Assembly: GCA_963780265.1 (NCBI GenBank)
Contig: CAWABQ010000028.1
Span: 135,491-199,490, forward strand
DNA: 64,000 nucleotides
Source of the DNA: Candidatus Bathyarchaeota archaeon
GTDB taxonomy: Archaea > Thermoproteota > Bathyarchaeia > 40CM-2-53-6
Reading direction: 5' to 3'
How positions within the stretch are numbered: position 1 is the stretch's first letter; every line of letters begins with the position of its first letter. The notes below the pieces were generated by a model. That model did not search any database. It was not told the DNA's origin and saw nothing but the letters and a program-made list of their open reading frames with translations. A program made the translations under genes and the position numbers. Below are positions 789-17,884 of this stretch, piece by piece.

Positions 789-2458
789 ATGCGACGAGAT
801 TTGCTAAAATTGAAGCCGTCGGTTGCGGCCGTTGCGGGTACGAAGCTGCACTGCAAGAATTGGCAGATCGAAGGCGCCTACAGGATGATTCATAATGTTC
901 TCGACCCGGAAGTTGCCAAGGACCCTGACAACCTTATCGTCTACGGCGGAACTGGTAGGGCTGCACGCTCCTGGGAATGCTTTGAGAAGATCACTCAAAC
1001 ACTTCAGGGGCTGGAAACGAACGAAACGCTGTTGATTCAGAGCGGTAAGCCAGTTGCAGTGTTTGAAACCCATGAGTGGGCTCCGCGCGTTCTAATATCC
1101 AATGCGATGCTCGTGCCGAAGTGGGCTACTTGGGACTACTTCCACGAGTTGGAACAGAAAGGCCTGATAATGTATGGGCAGATGACTGCCGGATCCTGGG
1201 CGTACATAGGAACGCAAGGAATCCTGCAGGGCACTTATGAAACATTGGTCTCGGTGGCGAAGAAGCATTTCGACGGCTCTCTCAAAGGACGCTTTGTCCT
1301 CACTGCGGGGCTTGGGGAGATGGGGGGAGCGCAGCCCTTAGCTGTGACAATGAACGATGGCATCGCCCTGGTTGTCGAAGTCAGCAAAGCCGCGATTGAT
1401 CGGCGGCTCAAGCATGGGTTCCTGGAGAAATGGACTGATGACCTCGACGAAGCAATACAACTGGTGAAGGCTGCGAAGGAGTCCAAGAAAAGCTTGAGTG
1501 TTGGATTACTAGGTAATGCAGCTGACGTTCTTCCGGAGTTGGCGAAGCGTGGGATCATTCCCGATATTGTTACGGATCAGACTTCGGCCCATGACCCTCT
1601 GAACGGATACTACCCCGCCGGCTTGAGTAAGGAAGAGGCTGATGAACTTCGGAAAGCTGATCCTGAAGAGTACCTTCGGAAGGCTAAGGAGAGCATGAAG
1701 CTGCATGTGAAAGCAATGGTCGAGATGATGCGGCGGGGTGCTATTACTTTCGAGTATGGCAACAACATAAGGCAGCAAGCCTTCGATGCCGGTTTCGAGG
1801 AAGCGTTTGCTTTCTCAGGGTTCGTTCCCGAATACATTCGCCCTATGTTCTGTGAAGGGCGAGGCCCCTTCCGTTGGACTTCTCTAGTAGGTGAAGAGGA
1901 GGACATCTTCACAATTGATGAGATGCTCAAGAGAGAGTTCGGCTACAACACGGACCTTGTAAGATGGATCGATAAGGCACGTAGCCAAGTGAAGTTCCAA
2001 GGGCTACCCGCTAGAGTCTGCTGGTTGGGATATGGGGAACGAGCTAAGTTTGGTAAGATCGTTAACGATATGGTCGCCGCAGGGAAGCTATCTGGCCCAA
2101 TCTGGGTTGGGCGAGACCATTTGGATACTGGCAGTGTCGCATCCCGCGAAGGGAGACTGAGAACATGAAGGACGGGTCGGATGCGGTGGCTGACTGGCCC
2201 ATACTGAACGCGTTGCTTAACGCAGTTGCGGGCGCATCATGGGTTTCCGTCCACCACGGCGGCGGCGTCGGCATTGGCTACAGCATCCACGCAGGCATGT
2301 GCCTCGTCCTGGATGGAACGAAGGAAATTGAGAAGCGTGCTGAGCGTGTTCTCACAACCGACCCTGGTCTAGGCGTCGTGAGACATGCCGACGCGGGATA
2401 CGATGCGGCAATCAAGGTTGCAAGAGAGAAAAAAATCAAGATGCCAATGCTAAAGTGA
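789..2458 (+). CDS. hutU: urocanate hydratase (HutU), interrupted by a 1-nt frameshift
   Basis: ORFs 789..2168 and 2165..2458 together give a full-length urocanase ([42 protein letters not shown]). The frames join if one G is added to the GGG run at 2151..2153 ([17 protein letters not shown]). Confidence 0.9.
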
Positions 2459-2469
2459 AGCTGCCCCTG

Positions 2470-3090
2470 TCAAGCTGAATAACCGTAGCTGACACTGTAG
2501 CCTCCTGTCTCGCGCTCAGCTGAGAAGACTAAGCCGAGTACGAGGCCACCGATTAGGCCGAACAGGTGTGCGAAGATGTTCACACCTGGCAACAGGCTGC
2601 TTTGAAGAAATAGTATAACGGCGTAGATCAAGGCGAAACCCATGTGTTGCGCTTTCCTTGCTACAGCTACATACGAACCTACGAGACCGAAGATGGCGCC
2701 CGAAGCTCCTCCTGAAACGGTTGCAGCAGGTAGCAAGACCAATGACATGACGCTCCCGAGGAGCCCGGAAGCAAAATAAATTGTTAGAAATTTCGGAGTC
2801 GTGAATGCGTTTTCGTTAAGCCGCCCGAAATAATACAACGCAAACATATTGAAAATCAGGTGAGTGAATCCAAAGTGAACAAACATTGAAGTGAACAACT
2901 GCCAATAGGCGCCCGCTAACACCAAGTCGTTCTCTTGCGCCAAAAGCTGACAGGCGGAAGATGTACAGTCCCCCGCGTCCCCGCTGATCAACATCGCTAT
3001 GAAAACCAGAACGTTCATGATTATCAGGACAAATACCGGTGAGGAGAGGAAACTCCCCTGCCTCCCGTAACCGTAACGACCGAAATTCAA
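2470..3090 (-). CDS. rhomboid family intramembrane serine protease
   Basis: Multi-TM protein with rhomboid signatures: WQLFTSMFVHFGFTHLIFNM, GASGAIFG (catalytic Ser) and AHLFGLIGG (catalytic His). Confidence 0.85.
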   Translation of the reverse strand: MNFGRYGYGRQGSFLSSPVFVLIIMNVLVFIAMLISGDAGDCTSSACQLLAQENDLVLAGAYWQLFTSMFVHFGFTHLIFNMFALYYFGRLNENAFTTPKFLTIYFASGLLGSVMSLVLLPAATVSGGASGAIFGLVGSYVAVARKAQHMGFALIYAVILFLQSSLLPGVNIFAHLFGLIGGLVLGLVFSAERETGGYSVSYGYSA

Positions 3091-3186
3091 GGTCGGACTC
3101 GATTGATTTCACACCTTATTTAAGTGAATTTTCAGACGCAACTAAATGCGAAACATTTCTGTACTGCAAGCACCGTGAGAATCATT

Positions 3187-3492
3187 GGGTTGGTGAGTTG
3201 GCGAGCGACTCCGGGCCCTATGCGTGATGGGCTTGAGGAAACTCCATCCACATGGCGGTCGCGTGGCACTGTGAGGTGCCGGCCGAGAGGCTGGGTTAAG
3301 GCGCAGAAAAATACCTCCGCCATCCGCGACTGTGATGCGCTTGCGTTGAGGAGGTTGGCGGTAAGGGTGAAATGCCTACACACGCTGTGAAAGGGATAAT
3401 AGGCGCCCGTGAGAACCGCCCAAGGCGCGGGTATCCCGATTAGATGAATGTCGCCTAAAACAGAAGGTGGGTTACGGCCAACACACCAACCC
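3187..3492 (+). ncRNA. rnpB: RNase P RNA (archaeal type A-like)
   Basis: Conserved RNase P RNA blocks are present: GAGGAAACUCC (~3235), GGUAAGGGUGAAA (~3360), UUAGAUGAAUG and ACAGAAGGUGGGUUAC (~3440..3476), close to E. coli M1 CCUAGAUGAAUGACU...ACAGAACCCGGCUUA. The 5' GGGUUGGUG/GUUGGC can pair with the 3' GGCCAAC/CACCAACCC (P1/P2). The only ORF here is an antisense read-through. Confidence 0.85.
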
Positions 3493-3500
3493 GTTTCATT
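3440..3500 (+). repeat. attL: 61-bp direct repeat covering the last ~53 nt of the RNase P RNA gene
   Basis: TTAGATGAATGTCGCCTAAAACAGAAGGTGGGTTACGGCCAACACACCAACCCGTTTCATT is identical (61/61) to 19122..19182. Confidence 0.9.
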
Positions 3501-3701
3501 ATCTTCTCTATTTTCTAAATCTGGCTTGTTTCCAGTTGATTGCATTTCTATTTGAACAATGTCGTTCTGTACGTGCATGTACGTACGTTTTCCGATGGAG
3601 TCAGCAATTGATTGCTCTGTTAGCCTGCTCATATTAATTCCAAGAGACTTTGCTTGCTGAACCAAATCGCGGTCCACACGAAACGTAAGCTTCTGTCTCA
3701 T
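3440..3701 (-). CDS. integrase N-terminal fragment Int(N) of a partitioned SSV-type integrase
   Basis: ATG at 3701, then 66 codons (MRQKLTFRVDRDLVQQAKSLGINMSRLTEQ, RHH-like), then 21 codons encoded by att (NETGWCVGRNPPSVLGDIHL). The rest of the 189-aa ORF (3132..3439) is antisense to RNase P RNA and is not considered coding. Confidence 0.6.
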
Positions 3702-3895
3702 TGAACCTTGACCGCCTTGTATACGTGTCCTTTGCCGTTATGCTTCTGGACGACTGCCAAGAACTTCTTTGCCAATTCCTCATCTTCCGTAAAATAACAA
3801 CTGCGCGTAGAAAACTTCAAGTCTTTGCCAAACTGGTCGGAAAAGAGAAAAAAGGACGACAAAAGGGCGACGAAAAGAAGAGAAAAGGCTGACAA
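3698..3895 (-). CDS. hypothetical small protein upstream of Int(N)
   Basis: 65-aa ORF whose stop overlaps the Int(N) ATG (ATGA). No recognisable motif. Confidence 0.3.
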   Translation of the reverse strand: MSAFSLLFVALLSSFFLFSDQFGKDLKFSTRSCYFTEDEELAKKFLAVVQKHNGKGHVYKAVKVQ

Positions 3896-3952
3896 TTTGC
3901 CAGTAGCAATAAATGATAGGCGACGCCAATTTCCTCGTCAGGAAGAGAGAAC

Positions 3953-4255
3953 ATGCCTGACTTTGCTTTCGTCTATAACTTGAATTCTGTTTTGCTCTAT
4001 TTGCTATGTGGCGGCCTCTACTTGGTATTGCGGAAGCGCCGTCGCTTAGATGACTTCAACATACGAGATTTCACAACAATTGAAGGCTTGTTCTTTCTCA
4101 TTGTATTCGGGTTGATGCAGGCTTACGGTCTTTCGGAGGTTCAAAATTCGCTAGCAACCTACGGGTTGTCCCTTTTTAGGCTAAGAACATCTGCGGTATT
4201 CTTTTTGGGTATTCTTGGCTTAGGCCACTTGGGTAAAAGCTACAATCGTAGCTGA
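3953..4255 (+). CDS. hypothetical small membrane protein
   Basis: 100-aa ORF with about 3 hydrophobic helices (VLLYLLCGGLYLVL, FFLIVFGLMQAYGL, AVFFLGILGLGHLG). Confidence 0.5.
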   Translation: MPDFAFVYNLNSVLLYLLCGGLYLVLRKRRRLDDFNIRDFTTIEGLFFLIVFGLMQAYGLSEVQNSLATYGLSLFRLRTSAVFFLGILGLGHLGKSYNRS

Positions 4256-4280
4256 CTCGAAAGGCGCTTGGCGAATTTAG

Positions 4281-4465
4281 CGTAATCGAACCAAAAAACA
4301 CTAAACAAGAGCCTATCGGACAGAAGATACGCCTTTCAGGAGAGAGTTCCAATTCAGGAATCTTTGCTTAGAGAAACGAAGTAAGCTCTCTGGTGTTACC
4401 AGCATCTCACTGTACCAGTTACACCATCCGTTATTCTTGGTTGAGACACCAATATCAAGAGAGAA
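4281..4465 (+). repeat. decayed IS (transposase 3' half) fragment, copy A
   Basis: Starts CGTAATCGAACCAAAAAACA and is alignable with 16628..16800 (GAGCCTATCGGACAGAA, GAGAGAGTTCCAATTCAGGAATCTTTGCTTAGA, GAGACACCAATATCAAG). Confidence 0.5.
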
Positions 4466-4467
4466 AT

Positions 4468-6012
4468 GAGCTATCATTGTCCGCTCTGCGGCCAAATTGT
4501 TACCCTGTTCCAGTACAATAGGATAACTGGCATCTGGAAGGAACGAGAGAAGTTACTCAGCAAGATCAGAGAAGAACGGAAGAAACTAGCTAGAAAGTCC
4601 GCCGGATTTTAGAAAGCGAAGAGCACAACTTGTCCAACAGGCGGTTCGAAAGCAAACTAAACCTTTAGAATCAAAGATAAGATCTCTGAAGCTTTCGCAA
4701 AGACAGCTAGAATCCAGCGCACAACAAGAAATGCGGCAAGCGACACTCCAAGCAAAGAAACTGCAAGGCAAGCTTAGGGAAAAGCTACTCAGAAGAATTG
4801 ATGACCAGAAGACAGCCTACGACCGACGAATCGGAAAAGAGCAGGAGAAGCTCCGAAAAGAATCCCTTAAGCTAAGAAAGCAGAAAGCCCGCCTCGTCCA
4901 ACAAATATCTAAGACGCAAAAGAGAAAATTTGAGACGCAGCTAAATGCGCTTAGACTCAGAGAGGCTCGAATAGAACAACGAACGCATCGAGAAAATACG
5001 CAGAGCTACAGCTTCAGCTCGTGAGAGAGCAAAGAGAATCGCAGCAATTCGCCTAAATTCGCTCAAAAGGGAATTTCGGAATCAAATAAGAAATGAAAGA
5101 GAACGCAACGCACGGGAAGTTGGAATAAAGTACAAGCGTCTGAACAACACGTTCCGATCTACCCTAATCCAAATGAAAGCAAAGACGACTCAGATTAAGG
5201 AACAAACAAGGCAGATAAGAGAACTGGAAAAGCAACTTAGACGACAGACTACCCCTCAGATAGAAGGACTTCTTTCTGAAGACATTCTGCTGAAGGAACT
5301 CAAGAAACGCTTCCCACAAGACAAGTTCCTGCATACGGGAAAGGGTGGAGACATACTGCATGAACTAATGCAAAATGGTCAGCCGGCAGGCTTGATTGTG
5401 TATGAGTGCAAACGAGTGAAACACTACTCAGCGAGTCATGTACAACAAACGTTAGATGCAAAAAAGAAAAGAAAAGCGGATTTTGCTCTCCTGGTAACCA
5501 ACGCGATGAAGAAAGGGACGCAAGGTTTCTTCACGGAGAGAGGAGTAGTGATTGTTCATCCAGCCGGGCTACTTCCGTTTGTAAGTATTCTAAGAGGACA
5601 AATGATGCACATTGCCGAAATGAAACTCGGACAGCGCGAAAGAGACAAGGCGATAAAAATGACATTAGAGTATCTTGAAGGACCACAGTTCGCTAATTCT
5701 ATGGATGCAATAGTTGAAGAGAGTATCAAACTATACCGCGACCTGCTTGATGAAGTTGAGAAACACATCGCCACATGGAAGCGGAGATACAGCTCTTACA
5801 ACAAAGTACACGAAGAAGCGTTATCCGTGAAAGGCACTAGCAAGGCGCTACTGAGCGGAGAACCCGAATACAAACAACAGATTCAAACGGACGCTTTCCC
5901 TGCGCTACCTGACATGCCCGAAGTAGAGAAGACGACCGCAAATCTTGTGGCTGAAAATTTCACCGGACACGCCGATAGAGAAGGTTCTGCGAAGGCGAGG
6001 GCGGTAGGCTAG
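4468..6012 (+). pseudogene. DUF2130-like coiled-coil / PD-(D/E)xK nuclease gene, fragmented by at least 3 frame disruptions
   Basis: Three pieces: N-terminal Zn-ribbon MSYHCPLCGQ (4468..4612, frame 1), K/R/E/Q coiled-coil pieces (frame 3 to 5024), then frame 1 from 4975 to 6012. The last piece carries the DUF2130 core (FPQDKF..GKGGDILHEL..GLIVYECKRVKHYS..ADFALLVTNAMKKG). Confidence 0.6.
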
Positions 6013-6029
6013 AAGGAGTTCTCCCACGC

Positions 6030-6509
6030 TTGGTGACAAGTCATTCCAGCCAACTAACAGGAATCGCTGGAACGTACTATGTTGCTGCAGAGCTGAGTCG
6101 CAGGGGATATTTGGCATATCCCACTTCGAGAAATGTCGGAGAGGTTGACATTCTCACAGCGAATCCCCGCACTGGCAAGTCAGTAAGCATTCAAGTCAAG
6201 TCAACATTGCGAGCTGAGGACAAAACTGGACGCTTGTACTGGATTTTGAACGAGAGAGCGGAAGGACTGAAAGACAGAAACTTATTTTATGTTTTCTTGA
6301 GTCTACAACAACCATCCAATTTCTACGTCGTTCCAAGCCAATCAGTGGCTAATTTCGTCGCAAAATATCACCGCAAATGGTTGAGACGTAAAGGACGACA
6401 TGGTCAAAGACACAAGAACACTAACATGCGGATGTGGTGGGCAGATAAGAGATACATCAACAAATGGGAATTACTCGGACTCGAATCCACTCCTAGTATG
6501 CCACGCTAA
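6030..6509 (+). CDS. hypothetical protein, PD-(D/E)xK nuclease-like N-terminal fold
   Basis: GIAGTYYVAAELSRRGYLAY..GEVDILT..SIQVKS matches the G-x-x-G-E..D-x-D..Q-V-K pattern of restriction-endonuclease-like small proteins. It starts 18 nt after the DUF2130-like gene. Confidence 0.5.
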   Translation: MVTSHSSQLTGIAGTYYVAAELSRRGYLAYPTSRNVGEVDILTANPRTGKSVSIQVKSTLRAEDKTGRLYWILNERAEGLKDRNLFYVFLSLQQPSNFYVVPSQSVANFVAKYHRKWLRRKGRHGQRHKNTNMRMWWADKRYINKWELLGLESTPSMPR

Positions 6510-6597
6510 TGCAACAGGCAACATTGTAACAGAACTTCTGAAGCGCTGCAAATAAGGGAAAGTTGACCGAGCTGCAACCAAATCGAGCAGATAGACA

Positions 6598-7035
6598 CTA
6601 TGGTCGCAAAAGAGGAATCACCCATTGTAACATTAGAAAGAAGACTACAAGAATAATCAGGAATGCAACAAACAAGGCAATCTTAGAGTCTGCGTATCGT
6701 ATCAAGTTCCCCCACTTCTTATCGTAAGTATGCTTTTTGATGTGTTTTTCGAGACTGCGCATGGTAGGAGCGGGGGGTTTAGGCGCATTTATCGCCGATG
6801 TGACAATCTGCCCGCACCAGAAAAAACGCACGATGCAAATTACGATAGCACTTACGATTGCGCTAAGAATGAACGAAAAGCCAAAGCTCGTGTTTGGAGT
6901 ACTAGGCAGTCTGGACCATATATCAACAACAGTCAGAATCGAGAGGACTAAGGTCACGAAATAGATCTTATAGTCCTGCATCAGAGATTTGTAGTATTCC
7001 AGAAGGGCTATTCTCGCCTGAAGCTGATCAGACAT
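6598..7035 (-). CDS. hypothetical membrane protein (3-4 TM)
   Basis: 145-aa ORF with clear TM helices (IYFVTLVLSILTVV, FSFILSAIVSAIVICIV, ALFVAFLIILVVFFLML). Confidence 0.6.
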   Translation of the reverse strand: MSDQLQARIALLEYYKSLMQDYKIYFVTLVLSILTVVDIWSRLPSTPNTSFGFSFILSAIVSAIVICIVRFFWCGQIVTSAINAPKPPAPTMRSLEKHIKKHTYDKKWGNLIRYADSKIALFVAFLIILVVFFLMLQWVIPLLRP

Positions 7036-7195
7036 GGATATTTGCCCTCGCCTACAGGCTAGTGCGAATGAATTAAGATTTGGGCAGATGTGAATGACAA
7101 TCTGTCCACGCCTTCATTTAATGATCCGACCAACTTCATAACTATGACATAGGAATAGAAACCACCGACAGAACAAGAAAACAAAGAAAGGCAAA

Positions 7196-7308
7196 GCGTA
7201 ATCGAACCAAAAAACACTGAGCATAAGGCAAGACAACAGAAAATCCAGAACTCACACAGTAACCAAAAATCATCGAACAAGAGAGCCTATCGGATACAAA
7301 ATAGAGAG
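7196..7308 (+). repeat. two short tandem IS-derived fragments (copies B1, B2)
   Basis: GCGTAATCGAACCAAAAAACAC at 7196 and GTAACCAAAAATCATCGAACAAGAGAGCCTATCGGATACAAAATAG at 7258. Both have the same 5' boundary as copies A and E. Confidence 0.5.
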
Positions 7309-7310
7309 TA

Positions 7311-7472
7311 ATGCATGAGAGATTTGCGGTGCCAAACACAGTAGAATGCCCAAACTGTAAGCAATGGTATCAGTCAAATCAGTCGAACGTCTGTCCATTT
7401 TGCGGCTACAAGGCCGAAGCATATCAGCACGTGAAGGCTGAAGGTTACGGCAATATGGGCGCGAAAGTATAA
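7311..7472 (+). CDS. hypothetical zinc-ribbon mini-protein (53 aa)
   Basis: MHERFAVPNTVECPNCKQWYQSNQSNVCPFCGYKAEAYQHV with CxxC..CxxC. It is below the ORF-track size cut-off and was read directly from the sequence. Confidence 0.35.
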   Translation: MHERFAVPNTVECPNCKQWYQSNQSNVCPFCGYKAEAYQHVKAEGYGNMGAKV

Positions 7473-7516
7473 CCCATCGGTAACTCAGGTAATTTCCCAC
7501 ATCAACCGTAGATTCT

Positions 7517-7999
7517 CTATCCGAGCAATGACGCTAAAGTGAGCATTATTAGCCCTAGACCCAACGGCATCATTGCAATTAGTCTAAAAACATGAGAGTT
7601 CTTGAGCTTGGTATTGGTGAACGGACCTAGAACTGACAAATAGAGTGAATAGACGATCTCAACGGAAAGAACGAGCAAAGTGACTACTCCCAGAATAATG
7701 GTGAAATCGGGGAGGTTCTCCTTTGTGAAAAGCAAGATTACGCCCGCGACAATAATGGAGGAAACAATTGAACAAATCGTCACGCACTTTTCGATAACCT
7801 TCTCCAAGAGTGGAGGACCTTGATTCACCTCGATGCCTCGCCTCGCAAGTCCCAATAGCGATAGAAATGAAATGAACAAGCTTTTGCCTCCGCTGCTCCC
7901 ACCTTGATTGTGATGGAGCCATAACGGAAAACAAAGTGACAGCGCTATGAAGACAATACCAATAAAATAAAGGAGAAATTTAGCAAAAATCAGGTACAA
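7517..7999 (-). CDS. hypothetical membrane protein (4-5 TM)
   Basis: 160-aa ORF that is strongly hydrophobic throughout. Confidence 0.6.
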   Translation of the reverse strand: MYLIFAKFLLYFIGIVFIALSLCFPLWLHHNQGGSSGGKSLFISFLSLLGLARRGIEVNQGPPLLEKVIEKCVTICSIVSSIIVAGVILLFTKENLPDFTIILGVVTLLVLSVEIVYSLYLSVLGPFTNTKLKNSHVFRLIAMMPLGLGLIMLTLASLLG

Positions 8000-8114
8000 G
8001 CGTGTGTCATTCCCTATTTCTCGTAGTGTTTGCCTTCCAGATTATAAGACAATCATAATCAACGTAAACTGATTAGAACGCAAAGGTGATGCGATTTAAA
8101 CATCCGATAAGCAC

Positions 8115-8205
8115 ATAACCAAAAATCATTGGGCAAAGGCCTGAGCAATAGAAAATATGTCCTTGGCGAGAGATTTCAATTCCGGAGTATTTTGCTTAAA
8201 CGGCA
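8115..8205 (+). repeat. IS-derived fragment, copy C
   Basis: ATAACCAAAAATCATTGGGCAAAGG...GAGAGATTTCAATTCCGGAGTATTTTGCTTAAACGG matches 16628..16720. Confidence 0.5.
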
Positions 8206-8382
8206 TATCCGACACATCAGGTTACAGGGCGACTCAACAAAATTAGAAATTAGCGTTTCGATTCAACCAATACGTATGCTATGAACAAGTTAGTCGCGGC
8301 AAAACCAGCCGTGGAATCAGGGTTCGACTTCATTCTTCAGAAAGACGGTTTAGCGTATTTCAGAAAACGAAAATAGCTAAGG

Positions 8383-9075
8383 CTATTTTGTTCCGCGATG
8401 ACGCTTCCAAATCACGAAGATAACGACTCCGCTCACTACAACCAAGAACACAAAGAAGACAACGTAGTTGTTGAAGGTGAACGAGTTCGATGGCAGCAGT
8501 TGACTGGACGCATTAGGTAAGGACGCCAGAGATGAGGTATAGGAAGTAGGTTGGTATGTGGCGGAGGTGAACGTACGAAATACCTGGGACCAACAAGTAA
8601 ATGAAATATTCGTATCCGTTATTCGAGGATTCCAGAAAACAAAGTAGTAGTTGTCAGAATCTGGAACCGTCCAGTCCATTGAGTAAGAAGTAATCCCATT
8701 AGCTGCCACATGTGCACTGGGAGGTACAACTTTGCCGCAGACGCCGCCGCCCTTACTAGTCAACTCTACAGCTTGCAAGCGTTGGAGCTGGCTGCTACTC
8801 AACACCCAGAAGTTTATCGGTTGACTGGCTTGTACCGTACCGAATAATTCTGTTCCAACGTATCCCTCCTCTAGTTGAATATCCGAATAGTAACAGCCGC
8901 TCGAAGTGTAACCGGGCACGTCAAATTGCTGATTCTGGATGGTATTCGTTATCACGTAAGTTGTGACGTAAGATTGCCTAACGCTGGAACCTTGAGAGAT
9001 TGCTGGAATTGTAACTAAAGATAACAACAGGAGAAAACCAACTATGACTTTGCTGGGAATGCGCAAGCTAGACAT
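8383..9075 (-). CDS. secreted, C-terminally membrane-anchored protein
   Basis: N-terminal signal peptide (VIVGFLLLLSLVTIPAISQG), a beta-rich S/T/Y ectodomain, and a C-terminal TM plus basic tail (VVFFVFLVVVSGVVIFVIWKRHRGTK). Confidence 0.65.
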   Translation of the reverse strand: MSSLRIPSKVIVGFLLLLSLVTIPAISQGSSVRQSYVTTYVITNTIQNQQFDVPGYTSSGCYYSDIQLEEGYVGTELFGTVQASQPINFWVLSSSQLQRLQAVELTSKGGGVCGKVVPPSAHVAANGITSYSMDWTVPDSDNYYFVFWNPRITDTNISFTCWSQVFRTFTSATYQPTSYTSSLASLPNASSQLLPSNSFTFNNYVVFFVFLVVVSGVVIFVIWKRHRGTK

Positions 9076-9127
9076 GGACCGTCCCCAAGGGACGAGTTTA
9101 TCCGCTTGTTAGTAGAAAACACTTGTC

Positions 9128-9335
9128 ATGCCATAAGGACTACAATAACTGGCTGACTGTAATCCAAGAAGCGAGCCGGTTGAAAGTCAGAAGAAGTAGA
9201 TCACGGGCAAGTAATGAGAACGCTAGAGAAAGGAGACACGCCAATCTTAACGGGTATGGAGATTTTTCACAACTACGTACGACCACGCATGACACTAGGC
9301 GGACGAACCCCAGCCGAGGCGGCAGGCATCAAGGT
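9128..9335 (+). mobile_element. two abutting remnants of a DDE (rve, IS6-like) transposase C-terminus
   Basis: NNWLTVIQEASR (the end of one copy) is followed by MRTLEKGDTPILTGMEIFHNYVRPRMTLGGRTPAEAAGIKVEG. The x-HNY-x-RPH..L-x-G-x-TPAE signature marks rve-domain transposases. There is no intact catalytic domain. Confidence 0.55.
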
Positions 9336-9352
9336 TGAAGGGTCGAAAGAAT

Positions 9353-9784
9353 TCAAAGCAGTTTCAGAAAGAGATACCCGGAATACACGATTCGTAGAAA
9401 TAGTAATGCTATCGGAATACTCATTATGACCTCGGCGAGAGGGCCAAGAAATGAAAGACTGGATACGAAAAGGGCGAAAGCAACAAACAAAGTGGCACTC
9501 GCAACATAGTATGTTGTCTCAGAAAGCAAATATTCCACTAGGAGAGTTCCTTCTCGCGCAATTTCGGAACTAACGAAGAATAGAACCGTTGAGAACGTCA
9601 ATGCAAAAATGATTGAAGAAACACTTGGCAAGTTGCTTTGGAAGAACCCTATAATAAACGCAAGACTAGCAAAGGCAAAACCAGAAAGAGCCAGTGAATT
9701 ACTACATAAGGTGCTCAGATATTTCTCCGACATCTTTTCCTTCATTTTGCGCTGAAAGAAAGGTTTCATAACCAAATAGGCCAA
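9353..9784 (-). CDS. hypothetical membrane protein (4 TM)
   Basis: 143-aa hydrophobic ORF (LALSGFAFASLAFIIGFF, IIFALTFSTVLFFV, ATLFVAFALFVSSL, IMSIPIALLFL). Confidence 0.55.
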   Translation of the reverse strand: MAYLVMKPFFQRKMKEKMSEKYLSTLCSNSLALSGFAFASLAFIIGFFQSNLPSVSSIIFALTFSTVLFFVSSEIAREGTLLVEYLLSETTYYVASATLFVAFALFVSSLSFLGPLAEVIMSIPIALLFLRIVYSGYLFLKLL

Positions 9785-9905
9785 GCTTTTTGTCGCCCTT
9801 GTCAGATTTAAGACCTGTTAGGAAGGCGAAGGGATACACTTGCCCCAAGTGCAGGGTCCGAGTCTATGCGGGTGAGCAGCATGTTTGTGCTTGAGGTGAT
9901 GCTCA

Positions 9906-10028
9906 ATGTCTGAGAATAAGGAAGAGAAAAAGGAAACGAAGCGAATAAAAATACAAGAATCCAAACAGGATCGCTGTGAAAAATGTGGGGAACTGATGTT
10001 CAGTGGCGAGGAACACGCATGTGGTTAA
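9906..10028 (+). CDS. hypothetical mini zinc-ribbon protein (40 aa)
   Basis: MSENKEEKKETKRIKIQESKQDRCEKCGELMFSGEEHACG. It is the only one of three tandem C-x-K-C..GE-x-H/S-x-C units with an ATG. Confidence 0.3.
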   Translation: MSENKEEKKETKRIKIQESKQDRCEKCGELMFSGEEHACG

Positions 10029-10342
10029 GACTTGAAGGAAATAGCTATTGACCGACTACACACGTTTCGATGGTGCAAAGCAACGGTACTGCGCCAAATG
10101 CAAAGCCTATCACTACAGCGGCGAAAGTTGCCCTAACTCGTAAATACCAACCGGTCACCATTCGGTTGATTAGTAGGTTTCTGCTCATTCTCAACCTGAG
10201 CGGTGCAATTGACTGAAGCAAAGCGTGAGGTTAAGATCGGCAATCTGACCTTCCACGACTTTAGGCATCCGAAACCAAGCGCAACTTTTGCGACTGTAGA
10301 GAGAATGGTTCTGTGCACCGTAAAGGGGTTTGAGGGTCAAAA

Positions 10343-10675
10343 ATGACCAACGCCAACCGCGAAGAAGCGCTAAATATTCTTAAGAGCATGGGGGAATGGG
10401 AACATGTCGTCCGATTGTTGACCGACTTGCGAGTAGGCGGTACACAACCAAAGATTGACTATGAGTTCGGTCATGATCTGTATGATATTGGAAGCGAAAT
10501 CGATAGTTATGGCATTCTTACAGTGCGCTTTTTCGTGAAATCGGAAGTGGCATTGCTGAGAGTGAATGATCAGTTTGTTGATCTAGATGTTGAGGAGATC
10601 TGGAATCAAATCACGAATATCCCAAAGTGGTTAAATTTAGTCCATATTGTGGGAGAAATTAGTTCTGTTTCTTAG
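10343..10675 (+). CDS. hypothetical protein
   Basis: 110-aa acidic ORF with an ATG start and no recognisable motif. It lies upstream of hsdR. Confidence 0.45.
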   Translation: MTNANREEALNILKSMGEWEHVVRLLTDLRVGGTQPKIDYEFGHDLYDIGSEIDSYGILTVRFFVKSEVALLRVNDQFVDLDVEEIWNQITNIPKWLNLVHIVGEISSVS

Positions 10676-10752
10676 ATGCGTTCTGTATTGGCGTTAACCA
10701 CCTGTTCTCGCCCTCACTGTGATAGCTTCAACTTCGAACGAATTCTAGGAAA

Positions 10753-10785
10753 GAGAACCAAAAAACATCGGACAAAAACCGATGG
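10753..10785 (+). repeat. short IS-derived fragment, copy F
   Basis: GAGAACCAAAAAACATCGGACAAAAACCGATGG shares the AACCAAAAAACATCGGA 5' block with copy E. Confidence 0.4.
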
Positions 10786-10899
10786 CTCTTCTTGATGAGG
10801 AAGAACATCGACATTACTGCCTCAAAGACGATCAAGCCTGGCTTGGCAAAGACCTATCTTGAATACACGCCCGTACTGTAATCTCAAGCTGGAAGCTGT

Positions 10900-13713
10900 A
10901 TGGCCAGACGCTCGTCCGAATGGCGTACACGCAGAGAAAAAATCGATGTCTTGCTAAAGCGGTCTGGCTGGGACGTGGATGACAGAACTAAAGTTTACCA
11001 AGAAGTAGACACCAAGCAATCTGATTTCAAAGCTGGAAAATACAAGACAGTAACAGAAACGCTCAAGACACCAGAGGAGAAAGCATACGCTGATTATCTT
11101 CTCCTTGACGCTCATGGACTTCCATTGGCAGTAATAGAAGCTAAACGAACCGACAAGGAATACTTGTCAGGTGAGAAGCAGGCTGAAGGTTACGCCGATG
11201 ACATAAAGAAGCAGACTGGAAAAGACATTTTCATTTTTCTCACAAACGGCTATGAGATATGGTTCTGGAACAGACCGTTCGAGGCGCCGCGAGCAGCCAG
11301 CGGTTTCCATGACAGAAATTCCCTTGAACGTTTGCGTTTCCAAAATGAGAACAAGAAGGATTTCGCTGAGGTTCCCATAAAGCGAGAGATCATTGATAGG
11401 CCGTACCAGATTGAATCGGTTAAACGAATTCTTGAAGGAATCGATAAGGGAAAACGAAAGTTTCTTATCGTGCAGGCTACCGGCAGCGGAAAAACTCGCG
11501 TCGCTATGGCTTTGATTGATGTGTTGCTACAAGCGAATAGGGCTCAAAGAATTCTGTTTCTCGCTGACAGAAAGGAACTCAGAGACCAAGCGTACGGAGA
11601 CAACGGTTTCAAAGCTTTCTTCCCTCAGGAATCTAAAGTCAAAGTGTTCTCGGGGCAAGTTGACAAAACACCACGTCTTTACGCTTCAACCATCCAGACG
11701 TTCATGGAGTGTTATCAGGAGTTTTCTCCTGGTGACTTCGACGTAATCATCTCAGATGAGGCTCATCGCTCTATCTACAACAAATGGAAGGAAGTATTCA
11801 CTTACTTTGATGCAATCGAGATTGGGCTAACTGCCACGCCTTCCGATCTCATAGAACGTGATACTTTCCGATTTTTCAATTGCGAGCAGAACACTCCGAC
11901 CTATCTCTACGGCTACGAAGAAGCAGTCAAAGACCACGTCCTGTGCGATTATAAAGTGTTCAAAGCACAAACTCATTTTCAGATAGAGGGCATTCAACCA
12001 TCCGATGTTCCAGACTCAATCAAGAAGAAACTGCTTGAAGAACAAGGAGTCGTGGAGGAAGAAATTAATTTCGAAGGGACCGACATAGAGAAGAAGGTTG
12101 TCGTAATAGGAACTAACGAAGCAATCGCAAAGGAATTTATGGACGACTGCTTAACCGACGCAGCTGGACTACCTGCCAAGACAATTATCTTCGCCGTCTC
12201 GCAGAAACATGCGACCCGACTCTGGGAGGCATTTGAAAAGCTCTATCCGCAATACAAAGGACAACTCGCGAGGAGAATTGTGTCAGAGGACATGAGGGCA
12301 GATGAACTTCTGAAACAATTCAAGACTGACAGTTTTCCCAGAGTTGCCATCTCAGTTGGAATGCTCGATACTGGAGTGGACATACCTGAAGTATGCAACC
12401 TCGTTTTCGCAAAACCCGTATTTTCTAAGATACGATTTTGGCAGATGATTGGCAGAGGAACCCGCCATGAGAGCGTATGCAGGCATAAGGATTGGCTCCC
12501 TGAAGAGGGCAAAGAATACTTCCTGATTTTCGACTTCTGGAACAATTTTGAATGGCACAACATGCATCCAAAAGGCAAAGAATCGACTCCCAGCGACGCC
12601 ATTCCAACAAGGATTTTTCTTACTCGACTCCAACAGCTGAACTATTTGCTCGAAACTAAAGACACTCGCGCAGAACTCATCAAAGAAGAGATTACTCAAG
12701 ACATCAATTCACTGCCTCAAGATTCAATCTCCATAAGAGAACACTCACGCGATGTTGAGAAAGCACTCTCACCCAGCTTCTGGGAAAATGTGGGCCTCGA
12801 CCAAAACAAACTCCTAAAGACCAAGATTGCGCCATTAATGAGGTATCAAAAAGATGTCAACCTTAACGAGGCAGCATGGACACTAAAAATCGAACGATTG
12901 AACCTCGCGATTCTAAAGAACAATCAGGCTGAGAAAGAGAGAGTTAGAGACGAAATTGGCGAATGGCTCAACGCACTTCCCACAACGATTCAAGAAGTCA
13001 AGGCAAAACAAGAATTACTAGACAGAGTAGTGCGGCCCAACTTCTGGGCAACGGTGACCTTTGAGGATGCTCAAATGCTGCTTAAGGAATTCACTCCACT
13101 AATGAAATACAAAGAGTCAGAACCAAGACCCACAATAATCCTCGACATTGACGATATGCTTCAGAAAAGAGAGTTTATTGAATATGGACCCATCCCCACG
13201 GAAGAATATGTGAGCACTTACGTGGAGAAAGTCGAGAAGAGAATCAAGGAACTCGCTGAACAGCATCCCACTATCGAGAAGATCAAGCGCGACCAAGTCC
13301 TAAATGAAGAGGACCTTAGAAATTTGGAGAAGACACTGAACAGTCCGGAACTTTACATCACAGAGGAAACACTCCAGAAAGCGTACAGACAACACAAGGG
13401 CACAATGGTCCAATTCATCAAGAAGGTTCTAGGACTCTACGAGTTTCCTGACGCAAACAAGAGAATTGCTGATTCATTCAAAACCTTCGTCATTGAAAAG
13501 AACTATCTGAACTCAGACCAAGTTAATTTTCTGCGCACAATACAAACTGTATTCAGCAAGAAACATCACATAGAATATGACGATCTTTTCGATGCACCCT
13601 TTACAAACTTTGGAGTGAACTTTCCAGTCCCAGCTTTTGGGGAAGACGATTTGCGAGACGTAATTAACCTGTGTAACAGTCTAGAGGTGGAAGTATTCCA
13701 TGCTATCGCCTGA
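10900..13713 (+). CDS. hsdR: type I restriction enzyme, R subunit (HsdR, EcoEI-like C-terminus)
   Basis: N-terminal PD-(D/E)xK (YADYLLLDAHGLPLAVIEAKR), SF2 helicase motifs (IVQATGSGKT, ISDEAHRS, QMIGRGTR) and an EcoEI_R_C-like tail (NYLNSDQVNFLRTI). Its stop overlaps the hsdM start. Confidence 0.95.
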   Translation: MARRSSEWRTRREKIDVLLKRSGWDVDDRTKVYQEVDTKQSDFKAGKYKTVTETLKTPEEKAYADYLLLDAHGLPLAVIEAKRTDKEYLSGEKQAEGYADDIKKQTGKDIFIFLTNGYEIWFWNRPFEAPRAASGFHDRNSLERLRFQNENKKDFAEVPIKREIIDRPYQIESVKRILEGIDKGKRKFLIVQATGSGKTRVAMALIDVLLQANRAQRILFLADRKELRDQAYGDNGFKAFFPQESKVKVFSGQVDKTPRLYASTIQTFMECYQEFSPGDFDVIISDEAHRSIYNKWKEVFTYFDAIEIGLTATPSDLIERDTFRFFNCEQNTPTYLYGYEEAVKDHVLCDYKVFKAQTHFQIEGIQPSDVPDSIKKKLLEEQGVVEEEINFEGTDIEKKVVVIGTNEAIAKEFMDDCLTDAAGLPAKTIIFAVSQKHATRLWEAFEKLYPQYKGQLARRIVSEDMRADELLKQFKTDSFPRVAISVGMLDTGVDIPEVCNLVFAKPVFSKIRFWQMIGRGTRHESVCRHKDWLPEEGKEYFLIFDFWNNFEWHNMHPKGKESTPSDAIPTRIFLTRLQQLNYLLETKDTRAELIKEEITQDINSLPQDSISIREHSRDVEKALSPSFWENVGLDQNKLLKTKIAPLMRYQKDVNLNEAAWTLKIERLNLAILKNNQAEKERVRDEIGEWLNALPTTIQEVKAKQELLDRVVRPNFWATVTFEDAQMLLKEFTPLMKYKESEPRPTIILDIDDMLQKREFIEYGPIPTEEYVSTYVEKVEKRIKELAEQHPTIEKIKRDQVLNEEDLRNLEKTLNSPELYITEETLQKAYRQHKGTMVQFIKKVLGLYEFPDANKRIADSFKTFVIEKNYLNSDQVNFLRTIQTVFSKKHHIEYDDLFDAPFTNFGVNFPVPAFGEDDLRDVINLCNSLEVEVFHAIA

Positions 13714-15181
13714 ACTGAAATCGCAGGTCAACAAACTCTGGGACAGGTTCTGGTCAGGAGGGATAGCCAACCCGCTTACTGCGATCGAACAGATGTCGTA
13801 CCTAATTTTCATGAAGCGCTTGGAAGACCTTGACAGTATTCACGCCAAGAGAGCTGCCATTAGAAAAGAGAAATTCAAGTCGATTTTTCAGGGACATGAG
13901 GACTGCCGTTGGTCACAGTGGAAGAACCTGAGTGCAGAGGCGATGCTAAAACACGTCTTGGGAGTCGTTTTTCCATTCATAAAGAATTTGACGAATGGCG
14001 ATGATGTCCTCTATTCGCAATATATGAAGGACGCAATGTTCGTCATCCCTAAGGCCTCTCTGTTGCAGGAGGCGGTCGCGATTATCGATGAGATGAACAT
14101 CACCGAAAGGAATCAAGACACACAAGGCGACATCTATGAGCACCTCTTGGCCGAACTCAAGACCTCGGGAAAGAATGGGCAATTCAGGACGCCACGTCAT
14201 ATCATCCGTATGATGGTCGAGCTTGTTGACCCTGACATAGGCCAGACGGTCTGTGACCCAGCGTGCGGCACGGCGGGGTTCCTTATTGCAGCATACGAGC
14301 ACATCTTGAGACGGTATACGAGCGATGAGATTGTCAGTGTGGACGAGGACGGTTCCGTGCATAACCTTTACGGAGACAAGATCATCGAGAAAGCTCACTG
14401 GGATCTTCTGAAACGCGAAACGTTCTTCGGATTCGATTTCGACACCACGATGATCCGCATTGGCCTTATGAACATGATATTGCACGGAATCGAGAGGCCC
14501 AACATTCGCTACTCGGACACGCTCTCGAAACGATTTGAACAGAAACCAATCTATGACATGGTATTTGCGAATCCTCCGTTTGCGGGTTCAATCGATAAGA
14601 GCGACATCAATGACACATTCAAACTGGACACGGCGAAGACAGAGCTTCTCTTTCTCGAACTGTTCTACAACCTCCTCAGAATGGGAGGTCGGGCTGCGGT
14701 TATTGTTCCCAATGGAGTTCTCTTCGGCTCCTCAAATGCTCACATTAAGGCGAGGCAATTACTTCTTGAGCAGTCAGAGCTTCAAGCCGTTGTTTCGATG
14801 CCCTCCGGAATCTTCCAACCCTATGCAGGCGTGAGCACAGCAGTCCTCGTTTTCGTAAAAGGAGGCAAGACGGAGAATGTCTGGTTCTATGAAATGAAAG
14901 CGGATGGCTATAGTTTGGACCAGAAACGTGATTTCATTGACGGCAAAGGCGACATACCTGACATCATCAAAGAGTTCAAAAGGCGTGCCAAATCGGCTCA
15001 GAGTATTCTTGTGCCCTTTTCAGAGATAAAGAAGAGTGACTACAATCTCTCCATATCACGCTACAAGAAGGTTGAGCATGAGGAAGTAGCGTACGAGGAC
15101 CCGGAAGTTTTGATTGAGAAAGTTTCGCAATTAGAGGAAGAGATTGCGAAGGATTTGCAGGAATTGAAAGCGATGATTTAG
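13700..15181 (+). CDS. hsdM: type I restriction-modification N6-adenine DNA methyltransferase (HsdM)
   Basis: HsdM N-terminal domain (LWDRFWSGGI), SAM motif (VCDPACGTAGFL) and catalytic FANPPFAGS. Confidence 0.95.
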   Translation: MLSPELKSQVNKLWDRFWSGGIANPLTAIEQMSYLIFMKRLEDLDSIHAKRAAIRKEKFKSIFQGHEDCRWSQWKNLSAEAMLKHVLGVVFPFIKNLTNGDDVLYSQYMKDAMFVIPKASLLQEAVAIIDEMNITERNQDTQGDIYEHLLAELKTSGKNGQFRTPRHIIRMMVELVDPDIGQTVCDPACGTAGFLIAAYEHILRRYTSDEIVSVDEDGSVHNLYGDKIIEKAHWDLLKRETFFGFDFDTTMIRIGLMNMILHGIERPNIRYSDTLSKRFEQKPIYDMVFANPPFAGSIDKSDINDTFKLDTAKTELLFLELFYNLLRMGGRAAVIVPNGVLFGSSNAHIKARQLLLEQSELQAVVSMPSGIFQPYAGVSTAVLVFVKGGKTENVWFYEMKADGYSLDQKRDFIDGKGDIPDIIKEFKRRAKSAQSILVPFSEIKKSDYNLSISRYKKVEHEEVAYEDPEVLIEKVSQLEEEIAKDLQELKAMI

Positions 15182-15182
15182 C

Positions 15183-16385
15183 ATGGATCTTCCGAACGGA
15201 TGGAGTGCAGTCAGACTGGGCGAAGTCTGCAGGGTCATGGATGTTGACCACAAGATGCCGAAGTCGCAGCCGAATGGAATACCGTTCATATCTGCTAAGG
15301 ACTTGGTGGGGAGCTCGTCCATTGACTTTAGCGAAACGAAATTCATTTCCGAAGAGGATTATCGTCGGCAGGCGAAAAAATGCGCTCCGAAAAAGAACGA
15401 TGTATTGTTCACTCGAATCGGAACGATAGGTGTCGCACGGTTAGTCAAGGACGACCGAAGATTCGGGATTTCCTATAGTCTATGTGTTGTCAGACCCTCA
15501 GAAAAAGTCGTGCCAGAGTATTTGGAGGCGCTGATGAACTCGGAAGTCGTCAAGAAGCAGGCGACAATGGGAACTCAAAGTATAGCCGTGCCCGATTTGG
15601 GCCTAAAACAGATAAGAGATTTCTTGATACAGCTTCCGCCTCTGAACGCTCAGAAAAGAATAACCAGCATTTATGAAAGAGCAACACGACTGAAGGACTT
15701 ACGCAGACAAGCAAACCAGCTTACCAGCAGAATCATCCAGTCAGTCTTTCTGAAGATGTTTGGAGATCCTGCAACGAATCCGAAGGACTGGCCAACTACA
15801 ACAATAGGAAATCATGCAAACATACGGTACGGAACTGGCAGCCCTCCTCGCTACGAAGAGAATGGAATACCGTTCGTTCGAGCTACAAATATCAAGATGG
15901 GCAGAATCGTCAGCCGTGAAATGAAATTCATTTCGGAAGAATCCACGAAGAGGATAGCGAAATGCAGGTTACAGAGCGGTAACCTCATTCTGGTGAGGAG
16001 CGGCGTAAATACGGGCGACTGTGCGTATGTGACAGACGATTACGACGGAGCGTATGCGGCTTACGATCTCATTCTAGATTTTGACAAGGACCTAAACAGC
16101 CGTTTTGTCTGGGCGATTCTGAACATGCCCCATGCAAGGAAAATCATGAAGTCGAGGAGCATCAGAGCGGCTCAACCTCATCTTAATGCTGGTCAGGTGT
16201 CCTCCATAGAAGTCCCGAAACCTCCAATTGAATTGCAAAGGAAGTTTGTGTCTTGGATAGAGAGAATCGATGGACTTGAGGCCAAACAAATGCGATCATC
16301 TCAAGAAATCAATCAACTCTTCAACTCTCTCATGCACAAAGCCTTCAGAGGAGAACTCAAGCGTGCGGAGACGAGAATTGCTTGA
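15183..16385 (+). CDS. hsdS: type I R-M specificity subunit (HsdS), two target-recognition domains
   Basis: Duplicated architecture with conserved spacers (LPPLNAQKRITSIYE..., VPKPPIELQRKFVSWIE...LMHKAFRGEL). It starts 2 nt after the hsdM stop. Confidence 0.9.
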   Translation: MDLPNGWSAVRLGEVCRVMDVDHKMPKSQPNGIPFISAKDLVGSSSIDFSETKFISEEDYRRQAKKCAPKKNDVLFTRIGTIGVARLVKDDRRFGISYSLCVVRPSEKVVPEYLEALMNSEVVKKQATMGTQSIAVPDLGLKQIRDFLIQLPPLNAQKRITSIYERATRLKDLRRQANQLTSRIIQSVFLKMFGDPATNPKDWPTTTIGNHANIRYGTGSPPRYEENGIPFVRATNIKMGRIVSREMKFISEESTKRIAKCRLQSGNLILVRSGVNTGDCAYVTDDYDGAYAAYDLILDFDKDLNSRFVWAILNMPHARKIMKSRSIRAAQPHLNAGQVSSIEVPKPPIELQRKFVSWIERIDGLEAKQMRSSQEINQLFNSLMHKAFRGELKRAETRIA

Positions 16386-16500
16386 TGTCGGTAGACGTGT
16401 GCTCGTTCAATTAGCCGAGCTAATCTAAATCACTTCGTTTTCTTGCGGCTTCATATCAACTTCTTTCGAAGTCTTGCTGCACTTAACAACCATAGGTACA

Positions 16501-16545
16501 GACGAACCAAAAAACACCTAACAAGAACCTATCAAACATAGAGCT
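16501..16545 (+). repeat. short IS-derived fragment, copy D
   Basis: GACGAACCAAAAAACACCTAACAAGAACCTATCAAACATAGAG. Confidence 0.4.
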
Positions 16546-16627
16546 ACTTGAATACTTGAATGGATAATGCAAACAAACAATCCACTCAGAACCGCAAGGT
16601 GTGCGACAACAATAGAACAAGACCTAA

Positions 16628-16936: not shown

Positions 16937-16965
16937 GAACCTTTGCGACTGTACGGGGAGTCCCA

Positions 16966-17736: not shown

Positions 17737-17884
17737 AAGAATCCAAGCTTACCTAGGTGACGGTTTTTTACAGCCCCTTTCAAGACAGGGGAAAACGGTT
17801 AGGTGACGACATCTTGACGTTACCTCACTAAATCCGCTTTATTACGATCAGTTACGCAGAGTAACAATAGCCCATCCATTGAAC

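Follow-up and report, generated by a model that had tools for sequence, protein, structure and literature searches.

The locus described here raises the question of which gene an archaeal integrative element has entered, and what became of that gene. Integration into the 3' ends of transfer RNA (tRNA) and transfer-messenger RNA (tmRNA) genes is the textbook rule, and Islander-like tools are built on that rule. The analyzed stretch, referred to here as the window, comprises 64,000 nucleotides of a Candidatus Bathyarchaeota archaeon (GenBank assembly GCA_963780265.1, contig CAWABQ010000028.1, positions 135,491 to 199,490 of the forward strand). It contains an integrative element, designated as element A, directly downstream of the gene for RNase P RNA (rnpB). 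The analysis led to the reading, given a probability of roughly 0.9, that element A entered the 3' end of rnpB by site-specific recombination via an SSV-type integrase, that the regenerated rnpB is intact, and that the clade to which this integrase belongs has switched its target. Five features of the locus and its relatives were observed directly: the anatomy of the attachment sites on the left (attL) and on the right (attR), the in-frame reconstitution of the integrase gene (int), the recurrence of the same arrangement with different cargo, the empty sites, and the intact rnpB.

The rnpB gene is located at 3187–3492 on the forward strand. The Rfam model RF00373 matches 3193–3486 (+) over its full length (model positions 1–288 of 288) with 168.6 bits and the E-value 3.2e-48 in an Infernal search, for which the gathering score is 84 bits. 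In the folding of 18 rnpB genes from Bathyarchaeia (that of the window and 17 relatives) with RNAalifold, 3187–3202 is paired with 3477–3492 as the P1 helix. One pair of this helix is U-A in the window where the 17 other genes have C-G, and two more pairs alternate between UA and CG. Because of this covariation, the RNase P RNA is predicted to terminate near 3492, and an end upstream of 3440 does not agree with it. Within the gene, the final 53 nt (3440–3492) include CR-IV (UUAGAUGAAUG), the 3' strand of P2, CR-V (ACAGAAGGUGGGUUAC), and the 3' strand of P1, all within attL. The conserved blocks CR-I, CR-IV, and CR-V together with a closing P1, by which an archaeal RNase P RNA is recognized, are present in the window gene. 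Of the 18 related full-length rnpB genes, 15 carry a GAGGAAA.TCC block ~209 nt before the 3' block, and its equivalent in the window is GAGGAAACTCC. The preliminary description of this DNA, made from the letters alone, had read the gene as RNase P RNA and the repeat as its last ~53 nt with CR-IV, CR-V, and the 3' strands of P2 and P1. The full-length match bears out the gene, the coordinates of the repeat are correct, and the covariance-model search that it had proposed returned a complete RNase P RNA whose P1 ends at 3492. No tRNA was found by Rfam near either junction of element A, and none was found by ARAGORN anywhere in the window; the only Rfam tRNA in the window (44968–45080) is far from rnpB and both junctions.

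The two attachment sites were revealed by a repeat search. attL (3440–3500, forward strand) and attR (19122–19182, forward strand) are the copies of a direct repeat of 61 nt with 100% identity and a spacing of 15,682 bp. The repeat consists of the last 53 nt of the RNase P RNA and 8 nt of the 3' flank, and an exact repeat of this length within 64 kb cannot have originated by chance. The attR copy alone is a displaced rnpB 3' fragment and shows a partial, sub-threshold match to RF00373 (19065–19168, 26.7 bits), as expected for a 3' fragment. The body of element A between the two copies (3501–19121) is 15,621 bp long, or 15,682 bp from att to att. Its boundaries are visible also in the base composition; the GC content is ~0.44–0.47 in the element and 0.51–0.53 in the flanks, a drop of 6–8 points within the repeats. 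The att copy carried by the element is predicted to restore a complete, model-conformant RNase P RNA, with the essential ribozyme being kept. An imperfect GGTGGGTT/AACACACC dyad in the att, noticed by eye and considered as a pair of candidate core sites, is within chance expectation.

A half of an integrase gene adjoins each copy of the repeat. The N-terminal stub, Int(N), is located at 3501–3701 on the minus strand with its ATG at 3701, and it was recognized from the list of open reading frames (ORFs), by tblastn of residues 1–99 of the query integrase, and as a CcdA-like ribbon-helix-helix (RHH) domain (PF07362). The C-terminal part, Int(C), is located at 18232–19121 on the minus strand and includes the SAM-like core-binding and catalytic domains (PF16795, PF00589, PF13495). 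When position 19121 is joined via att to position 3501, as in the circular form, a single ORF of 383 amino acids (aa) without any stop codon is reconstructed. The antisense rnpB 3' end is translated there as a linker (..NETGWCVGRNPPSVLGDIHLN..) between the RHH and core-binding domains. The 383-aa protein shows matches to PF16795 (36.8 bits; cut-off 27), PF00589 (30.7 bits; cut-off 27.1), and PF13495, and PF07362 is matched by residues 4–39. Its best match in PDB is XerA (4a8e) with the E-value 1.5e-7. It can be aligned over 96–99% of its length with intact homologues of 350–383 aa; the residues R236, K265, R325, R348, and Y358 are invariant among nine sequences, and the RHH residues K18, L20, G21, N23, S25, and E29 are invariant between Int(N) and the intact homologues. 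The only match from viruses is the integrase of SSV-RH (~25% identity), whose record annotates att inside int, and the matches from plasmids are mostly integrases of Sulfolobales plasmids; among characterised enzymes, these are its closest relatives. On these features, the integrase is assigned to the SSV-type ("suicidal", self-splitting) tyrosine recombinases, as a member that was split by integration.

The process that would have produced this arrangement is as follows. Element A would have entered the Bathyarchaeia chromosome through recombination between its own site (attP) and the chromosomal site (attB) at the 3' end of rnpB, probably catalyzed by the reconstructed integrase. As attP is located within the int ORF, integration cuts int into two parts, and Int(N) would be left by the regenerated rnpB at attL while Int(C) would be left by the displaced fragment at attR. 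The att copy of the element would complete the RNase P RNA at attL. From what is described for tyrosine recombinases and SSV-type integrases (PMC7253208), a directionality factor would not be needed, and excision would be expected only with an intact integrase supplied in trans or rebuilt (PMC7253208). The crossover presumably took place at some point within the 61 nt, and depending on that point, up to 53 nt of the present RNA may be derived from the element.

If rnpB is a target of this kind, the same junctions are expected from other genomes, and the preliminary description had proposed a scan of archaeal genomes for them. The scan with the rnpB 3' block was performed on one genome per species, and the loci were fetched with a pattern inside att. 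It detected 22 loci: 20 from Bathyarchaeia or from archaeal-looking contigs labelled otherwise, and two from Methanobacterium. Integrase pieces and duplicated rnpB 3' fragments beside rnpB recur in Bathyarchaeia. The Int(N) coding sequence is found directly 3' of rnpB in L010, L013, L017, L018, L021, and L024 with 36–77% identity, and weaker stubs or scars are found in L022 and L004, so the site is occupied in 6–8 of the 18 species representatives. The closest homologues of the integrase (61–93% identity) are fragments of the size of Int(C). In each of the contigs L001, L002, and L003, a rnpB 3' fragment is present at the 5' end of Int(C), and L001 and L003 adjoin Tsr3, YjeF, AsnC, and TiaS, the same host genes as in the right flank of the window. 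A second complete element was found in the JGI contig Ga0619418_06752771 (L001 and L030), with 58-nt att repeats at a distance of 11,384 bp, with different cargo (Peptidase_S74 and GIY-YIG), and with an integrase that is restored as an intact ORF. Pairs of attL and attR with int in frame across att are present also in L018/L006, from the same 161-kb contig, and in L013/L020, from the same metagenome-assembled genome (MAG). The int frame is thus continuous across att in four independent elements. The Int(C) of L006 is frameshifted. Further junctions are seen in L002, L003, and L026–L029, and the architecture recurs in the independent assemblies of JGI, ENA, NCBI, and Logan.

Some of these contigs carry unexpected labels. 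L013 and L020 (DATIYC01, "Candidatus Acidiferrales bacterium") and L014 (DASQZS01, "Candidatus Acidoferrum sp.") include archaeal RNase P RNA and Bathyarchaeia synteny, and L013 also includes the 5' end of an archaeal small-subunit rRNA. They are probably archaeal contigs mis-binned as Acidobacteriota.

Unoccupied sites provide the other side of the comparison. In L025, L005, and L004 the site is empty or nearly empty, and rnpB is only 80–415 nt from Tsr3. At the nucleotide level, the closest relatives of the window are the Bathyarchaeia MAG contigs L019, L007, L009, and L021, with 81–88% identity in its left flank, and the right flank is available for L009 alone (86%); the empty-site comparison is therefore one between species, not at the strain level. 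It is through this similarity of the flanks that the analysis assigned the host to Bathyarchaeia. A full RNase P RNA (161–188 bits) was found in all 18 loci having the 5' part, which are Bathyarchaeia species representatives. Neither the rnpB scores nor the quality of P1 pairing differ between occupied and unoccupied loci, and therefore integration leaves rnpB intact. A cost of the foreign 3' strand in the form of extra mismatches or wobble pairs in P1 at the occupied loci was considered and discarded, as no difference was found; a terminal G-U pair is shared by no more than three loci, occupied or scarred. Identity is 93% for the att segment of rnpB and 81% for the rest of the gene, but this difference is biased by the retrieval pattern inside att and is not taken as evidence. 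Among the closest relatives by the left flank, L007 and L019 lack Int(N) after rnpB. In L007 (oriented 1124–3993), more than 6.9 kb of other DNA precedes Tsr3, and it includes a segment 83% identical to 19398–19882 of the window. The interval between rnpB and tsr3 seems to act as a general hotspot of variable DNA.

The right side of element A retains the traces of older insertions. Immediately after attR, a decayed Int(N)-like remnant was recognized at 19183–19260 on the minus strand by tblastn, by translation, and by DNA alignment with the flank of attL. Its peptide ..SSQPEIQSLQNNSNSANSPR stands beside att with a stop codon upstream, and the tblastn match at attR continues past att up to query residue 42. 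It represents an older element of the same family. The remnant is the beginning of region B (19183–21096), which is left from an earlier insertion at the same site and includes two ORFs without family match; a part of it is shared with L007, where it is located downstream of rnpB. Region B is followed by a 16-nt relic, GCCAACACACCAACCC, at 21097–21112 on the forward strand, found as an exact copy in the repeat search. It corresponds to the P1 3' strand of an earlier rnpB 3' end. What follows the relic is similar to the native flanks seen at empty sites, and the relic is ~445 nt from Tsr3, within the spacing range of the empty sites L025, L005, and L004. The native right-flank gene, Tsr3 (Ribo_biogen_C; PF04034, 1.4e-41), is at 21558–22124 on the minus strand, and it adjoins attR or an empty site also in L001, L003, L004, L005, L006, L020, and L025. 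In the window, 17.9 kb separates rnpB from the native flank preceding Tsr3. The order of the array is best read as rnpB, element A, att, the remnant of element B (which has lost its Int(C) and most of its attR), the 16-nt relic, and the native flank. The rnpB site has thus been used repeatedly, and the insertion of element A took place upstream of what is left from an earlier, related element. Similar scars are present elsewhere: a short Int(N) remnant in L004, a 15-nt partial att 1.6 kb downstream in L011, a 17-nt repeat with a remnant of the Int C-terminus in L014, and an Int(N)-like sequence past attR in L003.

The 16-nt relic and the split of int across att are absent from the preliminary description. 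This array changes how the right copy of the repeat should be viewed. The preliminary description had taken 19122–19174 as the displaced original 3' end of rnpB. A displaced rnpB fragment is indeed there, but as the older Int(N) remnant follows 19122–19182 directly, that copy was probably supplied by element B and is not the original 3' end of the host; the oldest relic of the site would be the 16 nt at 21097–21112. The strict conservation of the repeat had been explained by the catalytically essential nucleotides within it, and this explanation fails, because the attR copy belongs to no RNA gene. The identity of attL and attR reflects recombination and recent insertion. What the functional constraint on CR-IV and CR-V explains is the stability of attB across species. 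As neither half of int is damaged and the two att copies show no difference over 61 nt, the insertion in the window is recent.

Several observations weigh against the reading given at the outset. All of the data are from metagenome assemblies. No intact (attP-form) integrase of the rnpB type and no circular episome were found, and all 15 protein matches of Int(N) are short stubs. IMG/VR was searched with the exact att and with the integrase, and no match was obtained. L026 reads through att but ends at the contig edge, and it may represent a tandem junction, as found at attR of the window. Computation detected no dyad symmetry in att. No significant similarity that would explain the switch was found between the rnpB att and tRNA-type att in local alignment against shuffled sequences (p ~0.07 and 0.93). 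No replication, transfer, or virion genes were recognizable in element A with Pfam and PHROGs.

The alternative that survives best accepts the integration as real, but takes element A as a defence island that is now fixed and immobile: int would have been destroyed on insertion, and rnpB would be a graveyard of elements and not an active attB. This is unlikely, but it deserves serious attention, as it would account for the failure to find an intact integrase or an episome in IMG/VR and in the Int(N) protein search, for the frameshifted Int(C) of L006, and for the remnants and scars in the window, L004, L011, and L014. The recent insertion in the window speaks against it, with int halves free of stop codons and frameshifts between identical att copies, and the element of L001 is intact too. 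Different cargo and integrase identities of 36–93% at one site imply many independent insertions, and suicidal integrases are known to persist through episomal copies and the recombination of stubs (PMC7253208). Under site-specific integration into rnpB by a self-splitting integrase, elements of this group may still be mobile at present.

The possibility that the integrase is not of the splitting kind has a very low probability. It would be a pNOB8-type (type II) enzyme consisting of Int(C) alone, with att upstream of it, and Int(N) would be an unrelated small RHH gene. Int(C) alone does contain both the SAM-like and the catalytic domains, most homologues in the databases are annotated as proteins of ~280–300 aa, and pNOB8-like integrases are among the plasmid matches. 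Against this, the int frame is unbroken across att in the four independent elements, and the RHH domain of Int(N) is homologous to the N-terminus of the intact 350–383-aa homologues. The homologues of 280–300 aa begin with antisense-tRNA peptides, and therefore they are split stubs themselves. That the repeat is a local duplication or an assembly artefact of the rnpB 3' end, enclosing ordinary chromosomal DNA, is a negligible prospect: repeats can cause mis-joins in metagenome assemblies, but the same architecture with different cargo is seen in independent JGI, ENA, NCBI, and Logan assemblies, the GC content is 6–8 points lower within the repeats, the integrase halves are split exactly at both junctions, and empty sites in related species put rnpB beside Tsr3.

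The homologues of the SSV-type integrase of element A also indicate from where the rnpB target was acquired. Homologues with 45% or lower identity carry antisense tRNA 3'-half peptides (GFEPT, DLNPGARLHR, and WWAGPDLNRRPLARKAP) at their start or at the linker position. L031 (10001–11074) encodes an intact 357-aa relative, and a tRNA 3' half ending in CCA is present within its int ORF. GRNPPSVLGDIHL is observed only in the clade close to the query. It is carried by the Int(C) proteins P0003, P0004, P0129, P0133, and P0134, and by Int(N) proteins of twelve distinct 90%-identity clusters (P0121–P0128, P0130–P0132, and P0135). The simplest reading of this distribution would be a single switch in which tRNA genes were exchanged for rnpB as the target, with diversification afterwards. 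The integrase gene of L031 adjoins ordinary-looking host genes (thermosome, Sua5, and an ABC transporter), and no full tRNA gene was detected near it.

Some of the Int(N) records need a comment. The 189-aa ORF at 3132–3701 on the minus strand, which fuses Int(N) to the antisense att and RNase P RNA, is artefactual. It is identical to the protein P0121 of NCBI/ENA, and the related stubs P0122–P0135 have also been deposited. Public databases thus hold spurious antisense RNase P RNA–Int(N) proteins, such as P0121, and these antisense-rnpB "proteins" are annotation artefacts.

The arrangement is shared with known SSV-type systems: the fuselloviruses SSV1, SSV2, and SSV-RH, pT26-2, and the TKV/TPV-type elements of Thermococcales and Archaeoglobales. 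As in these systems, attP is located in the int ORF, Int(N) and Int(C) are found at opposite ends of the element, att is the regenerated 3' part of a stable RNA gene and at the same time a variable coding linker, and PF16795 is matched. The differences are in the target, the host, and the N-terminus. The targets of all described members are tRNA genes (the 3' part, rarely the 5' part), and only tRNA genes are reported as targets in the study of suicidal integrases, which also describes arrays of tandem and remnant copies and the switching of targets (PMC7253208). A tRNA target does not belong to the mechanism by which the type is defined. The hosts of the known systems are hyperthermophiles, in contrast to the Bathyarchaeia of soil and peat, and the N-terminal domain of the integrase of element A is a CcdA-like RHH. 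The reconstructed integrase is only ~25% identical to that of SSV-RH.

Outside this family, the closest parallel is with bacterial islands and prophages in the tmRNA gene (ssrA). As far as they are described with Islander/TIGER (PMC4383910), they share a non-tRNA stable RNA gene as attB, a 3' end supplied by the element, and a displaced fragment at the far end. They are bacterial and their integrases are unsplit. In addition, tmRNA has a tRNA-like 3' domain, while the rnpB 3' end has no significant similarity to the tRNA-type att of this integrase family. The features by which an island in a stable RNA gene is recognized, namely a regenerated target, a displaced fragment, an integrase at the end, sporadic presence, and empty sites, are all found for element A. 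In 2025, integration of the Enterococcus phage phiEf11 into ffs, the gene for 4.5S (signal recognition particle, SRP) RNA, was reported as a novel att site, and tRNA/tmRNA and csRNA were listed as the known noncoding RNA targets (PMC12540744). In both cases, the gene for an essential ribonucleoprotein RNA serves as attB. The phiEf11 case differs in being a single bacterial phage with a 27-nt core, a conventional integrase, and attP outside the gene, and not a clade distributed across many species.

Among the integrated elements of Thaumarchaeota analyzed by Krupovic et al. in 2019, the 68 mapped targets were 39 tRNA genes, 15 intergenic regions, and 14 protein-gene 3' ends (PMC6563490). Those elements are similar to the present ones in being cryptic integrative elements with defence cargo; their hosts are mesophiles in a related archaeal phylum, and tandem integrations at a single site are seen (PMC6563490). 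Their att is mostly short (median 17 bp), compared with 55–61 bp at rnpB, and no rnpB match was found among the att sequences in Table S2 (PMC6563490). Taken together, reviews and surveys of archaeal integrases and integrated elements give as targets tRNA genes, the 3' ends of protein genes, and intergenic regions (PMC6563490, PMC7253208). The preliminary description had treated RNase P RNA as a target that is not known to have been described and had suggested a possible new class of attB. In agreement with this, no report of rnpB as an attachment site was found in searches of the open-access full-text literature, and the co-mentions of RNase P and integrases that were examined are unrelated; the absence is probable, not proven. 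The mechanism of SSV-type integration itself is known, and what is new is the rnpB target class, its use by a whole clade, and the Bathyarchaeia hosts from soil and peat.

A wider claim can be put forward only tentatively, with the odds somewhat against it: RNase P RNA would be the third class of stable-RNA att after tRNA and tmRNA, the first non-tRNA class in Archaea, used by a whole switched clade of self-splitting integrases, and each insertion would replace up to 53 nt of the RNA (CR-IV, CR-V, and the 3' strands of P2 and P1). If it is true, elements could carry segments of the catalytic core of an essential ribozyme from one species to another, the need to pair with the 5' strands of P1 and P2 of the host could restrict their host range, and the rnpB–tsr3 interval would serve repeatedly as a landing pad for the defence islands of soil Bathyarchaeia. 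If rnpB is used like tRNA genes across Bathyarchaeia, island finders centred on tRNA genes miss a class of islands, and "intergenic" integrations may hide unannotated RNA genes. The clade offers a natural case of a self-splitting integrase family changing its target class from tRNA to rnpB. This bears on the specificity change of suicidal integrases, because att doubles as a coding linker. It also extends the SSV-type integrases from hyperthermophiles to abundant archaea of soil and peat. An attB of 55–61 bp in a universal single-copy gene could be a landing site for genetic tools in uncultivated archaea. The findings are of interest to specialists of archaeal mobile elements and useful for island-finding methods.

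The cargo of element A includes a DUF2130 protein at 5173–6012 (forward strand; PF09903, E-value 6e-27) and a complete type I restriction-modification operon at 10900–16385 on the forward strand, recognized with Pfam and PADLOC. The operon consists of hsdR at 10900–13713 (forward strand; ResIII, EcoEI_R_C, and HSDR_N; PADLOC REase_I, 4.9e-151), hsdM at 13700–15181 (forward strand; N6_Mtase and HsdM_N; PADLOC MTase_I, 6.7e-172), and hsdS at 15183–16385 (forward strand; Methylase_S; PADLOC Specificity_I, 5.6e-71). Several membrane or secreted proteins without family match are also encoded. No viral hallmark genes, such as those for capsid or packaging, were found in the element with Pfam or PHROGs, and one PHROG of unknown function was matched. 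A provirus was considered and rejected on the absence of hallmark genes and of relatives in IMG/VR. Element A is therefore described, on its gene content, as a probable cryptic integrative element or defence island and not a recognizable provirus.

The non-coding parts of element A contain repeated sequences. The 12-nt motif AACCAAAAANCA is present in 7 copies (4289, 7205, 7261, 8117, 10756, 16505, and 16631), against a chance expectation of 0.08. All of the copies are on the forward strand, within element A, and between those ORFs of at least 60 aa that were judged to be genes, and the motif may be an element-specific promoter or a regulator-binding site. Direct duplications with 78–84% identity are found between 8152–8214 and 16669–16731, between 9196–9317 and 16733–16854, and between 7259–7301 and 16629–16671. 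Sequence similar to that around 7.2–9.3 kb is therefore present upstream of the ORF at 16966, and the element has paralogous intergenic or small-ORF modules.

The genomic context of rnpB varies among the scanned loci. It is ~100 nt downstream of the large-subunit rRNA gene in L012 (1–1383) and L016 (1–1996), and in L017 (373–6953) it is within ~1.5 kb of the rRNA operon, on the opposite strand. The context in the window is hutU–rhomboid–rnpB–tsr3, unlike these three.

Other features of the window are located beyond the right flank. The 113-nt tRNA gene at 44968–45080 on the minus strand has 46.3 bits in Rfam and no ARAGORN match. Relative to the model it contains two insertions, one in the D-loop region (29 nt) and one at the anticodon loop (18 nt), and it is probably a multi-intron archaeal tRNA. 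A thiamine pyrophosphate (TPP) riboswitch aptamer is present at 52287–52397 on the minus strand (RF00059, 70.2 bits, with a gathering score of 54.3). At 26037–26242, units such as GGCGGATAC/GGCGGCTAT are arranged in tandem with a period of 9 nt; the array was detected as 15 overlapping 80-nt copies at 9-nt spacing, and it would encode a Gly/Tyr-rich repeat.

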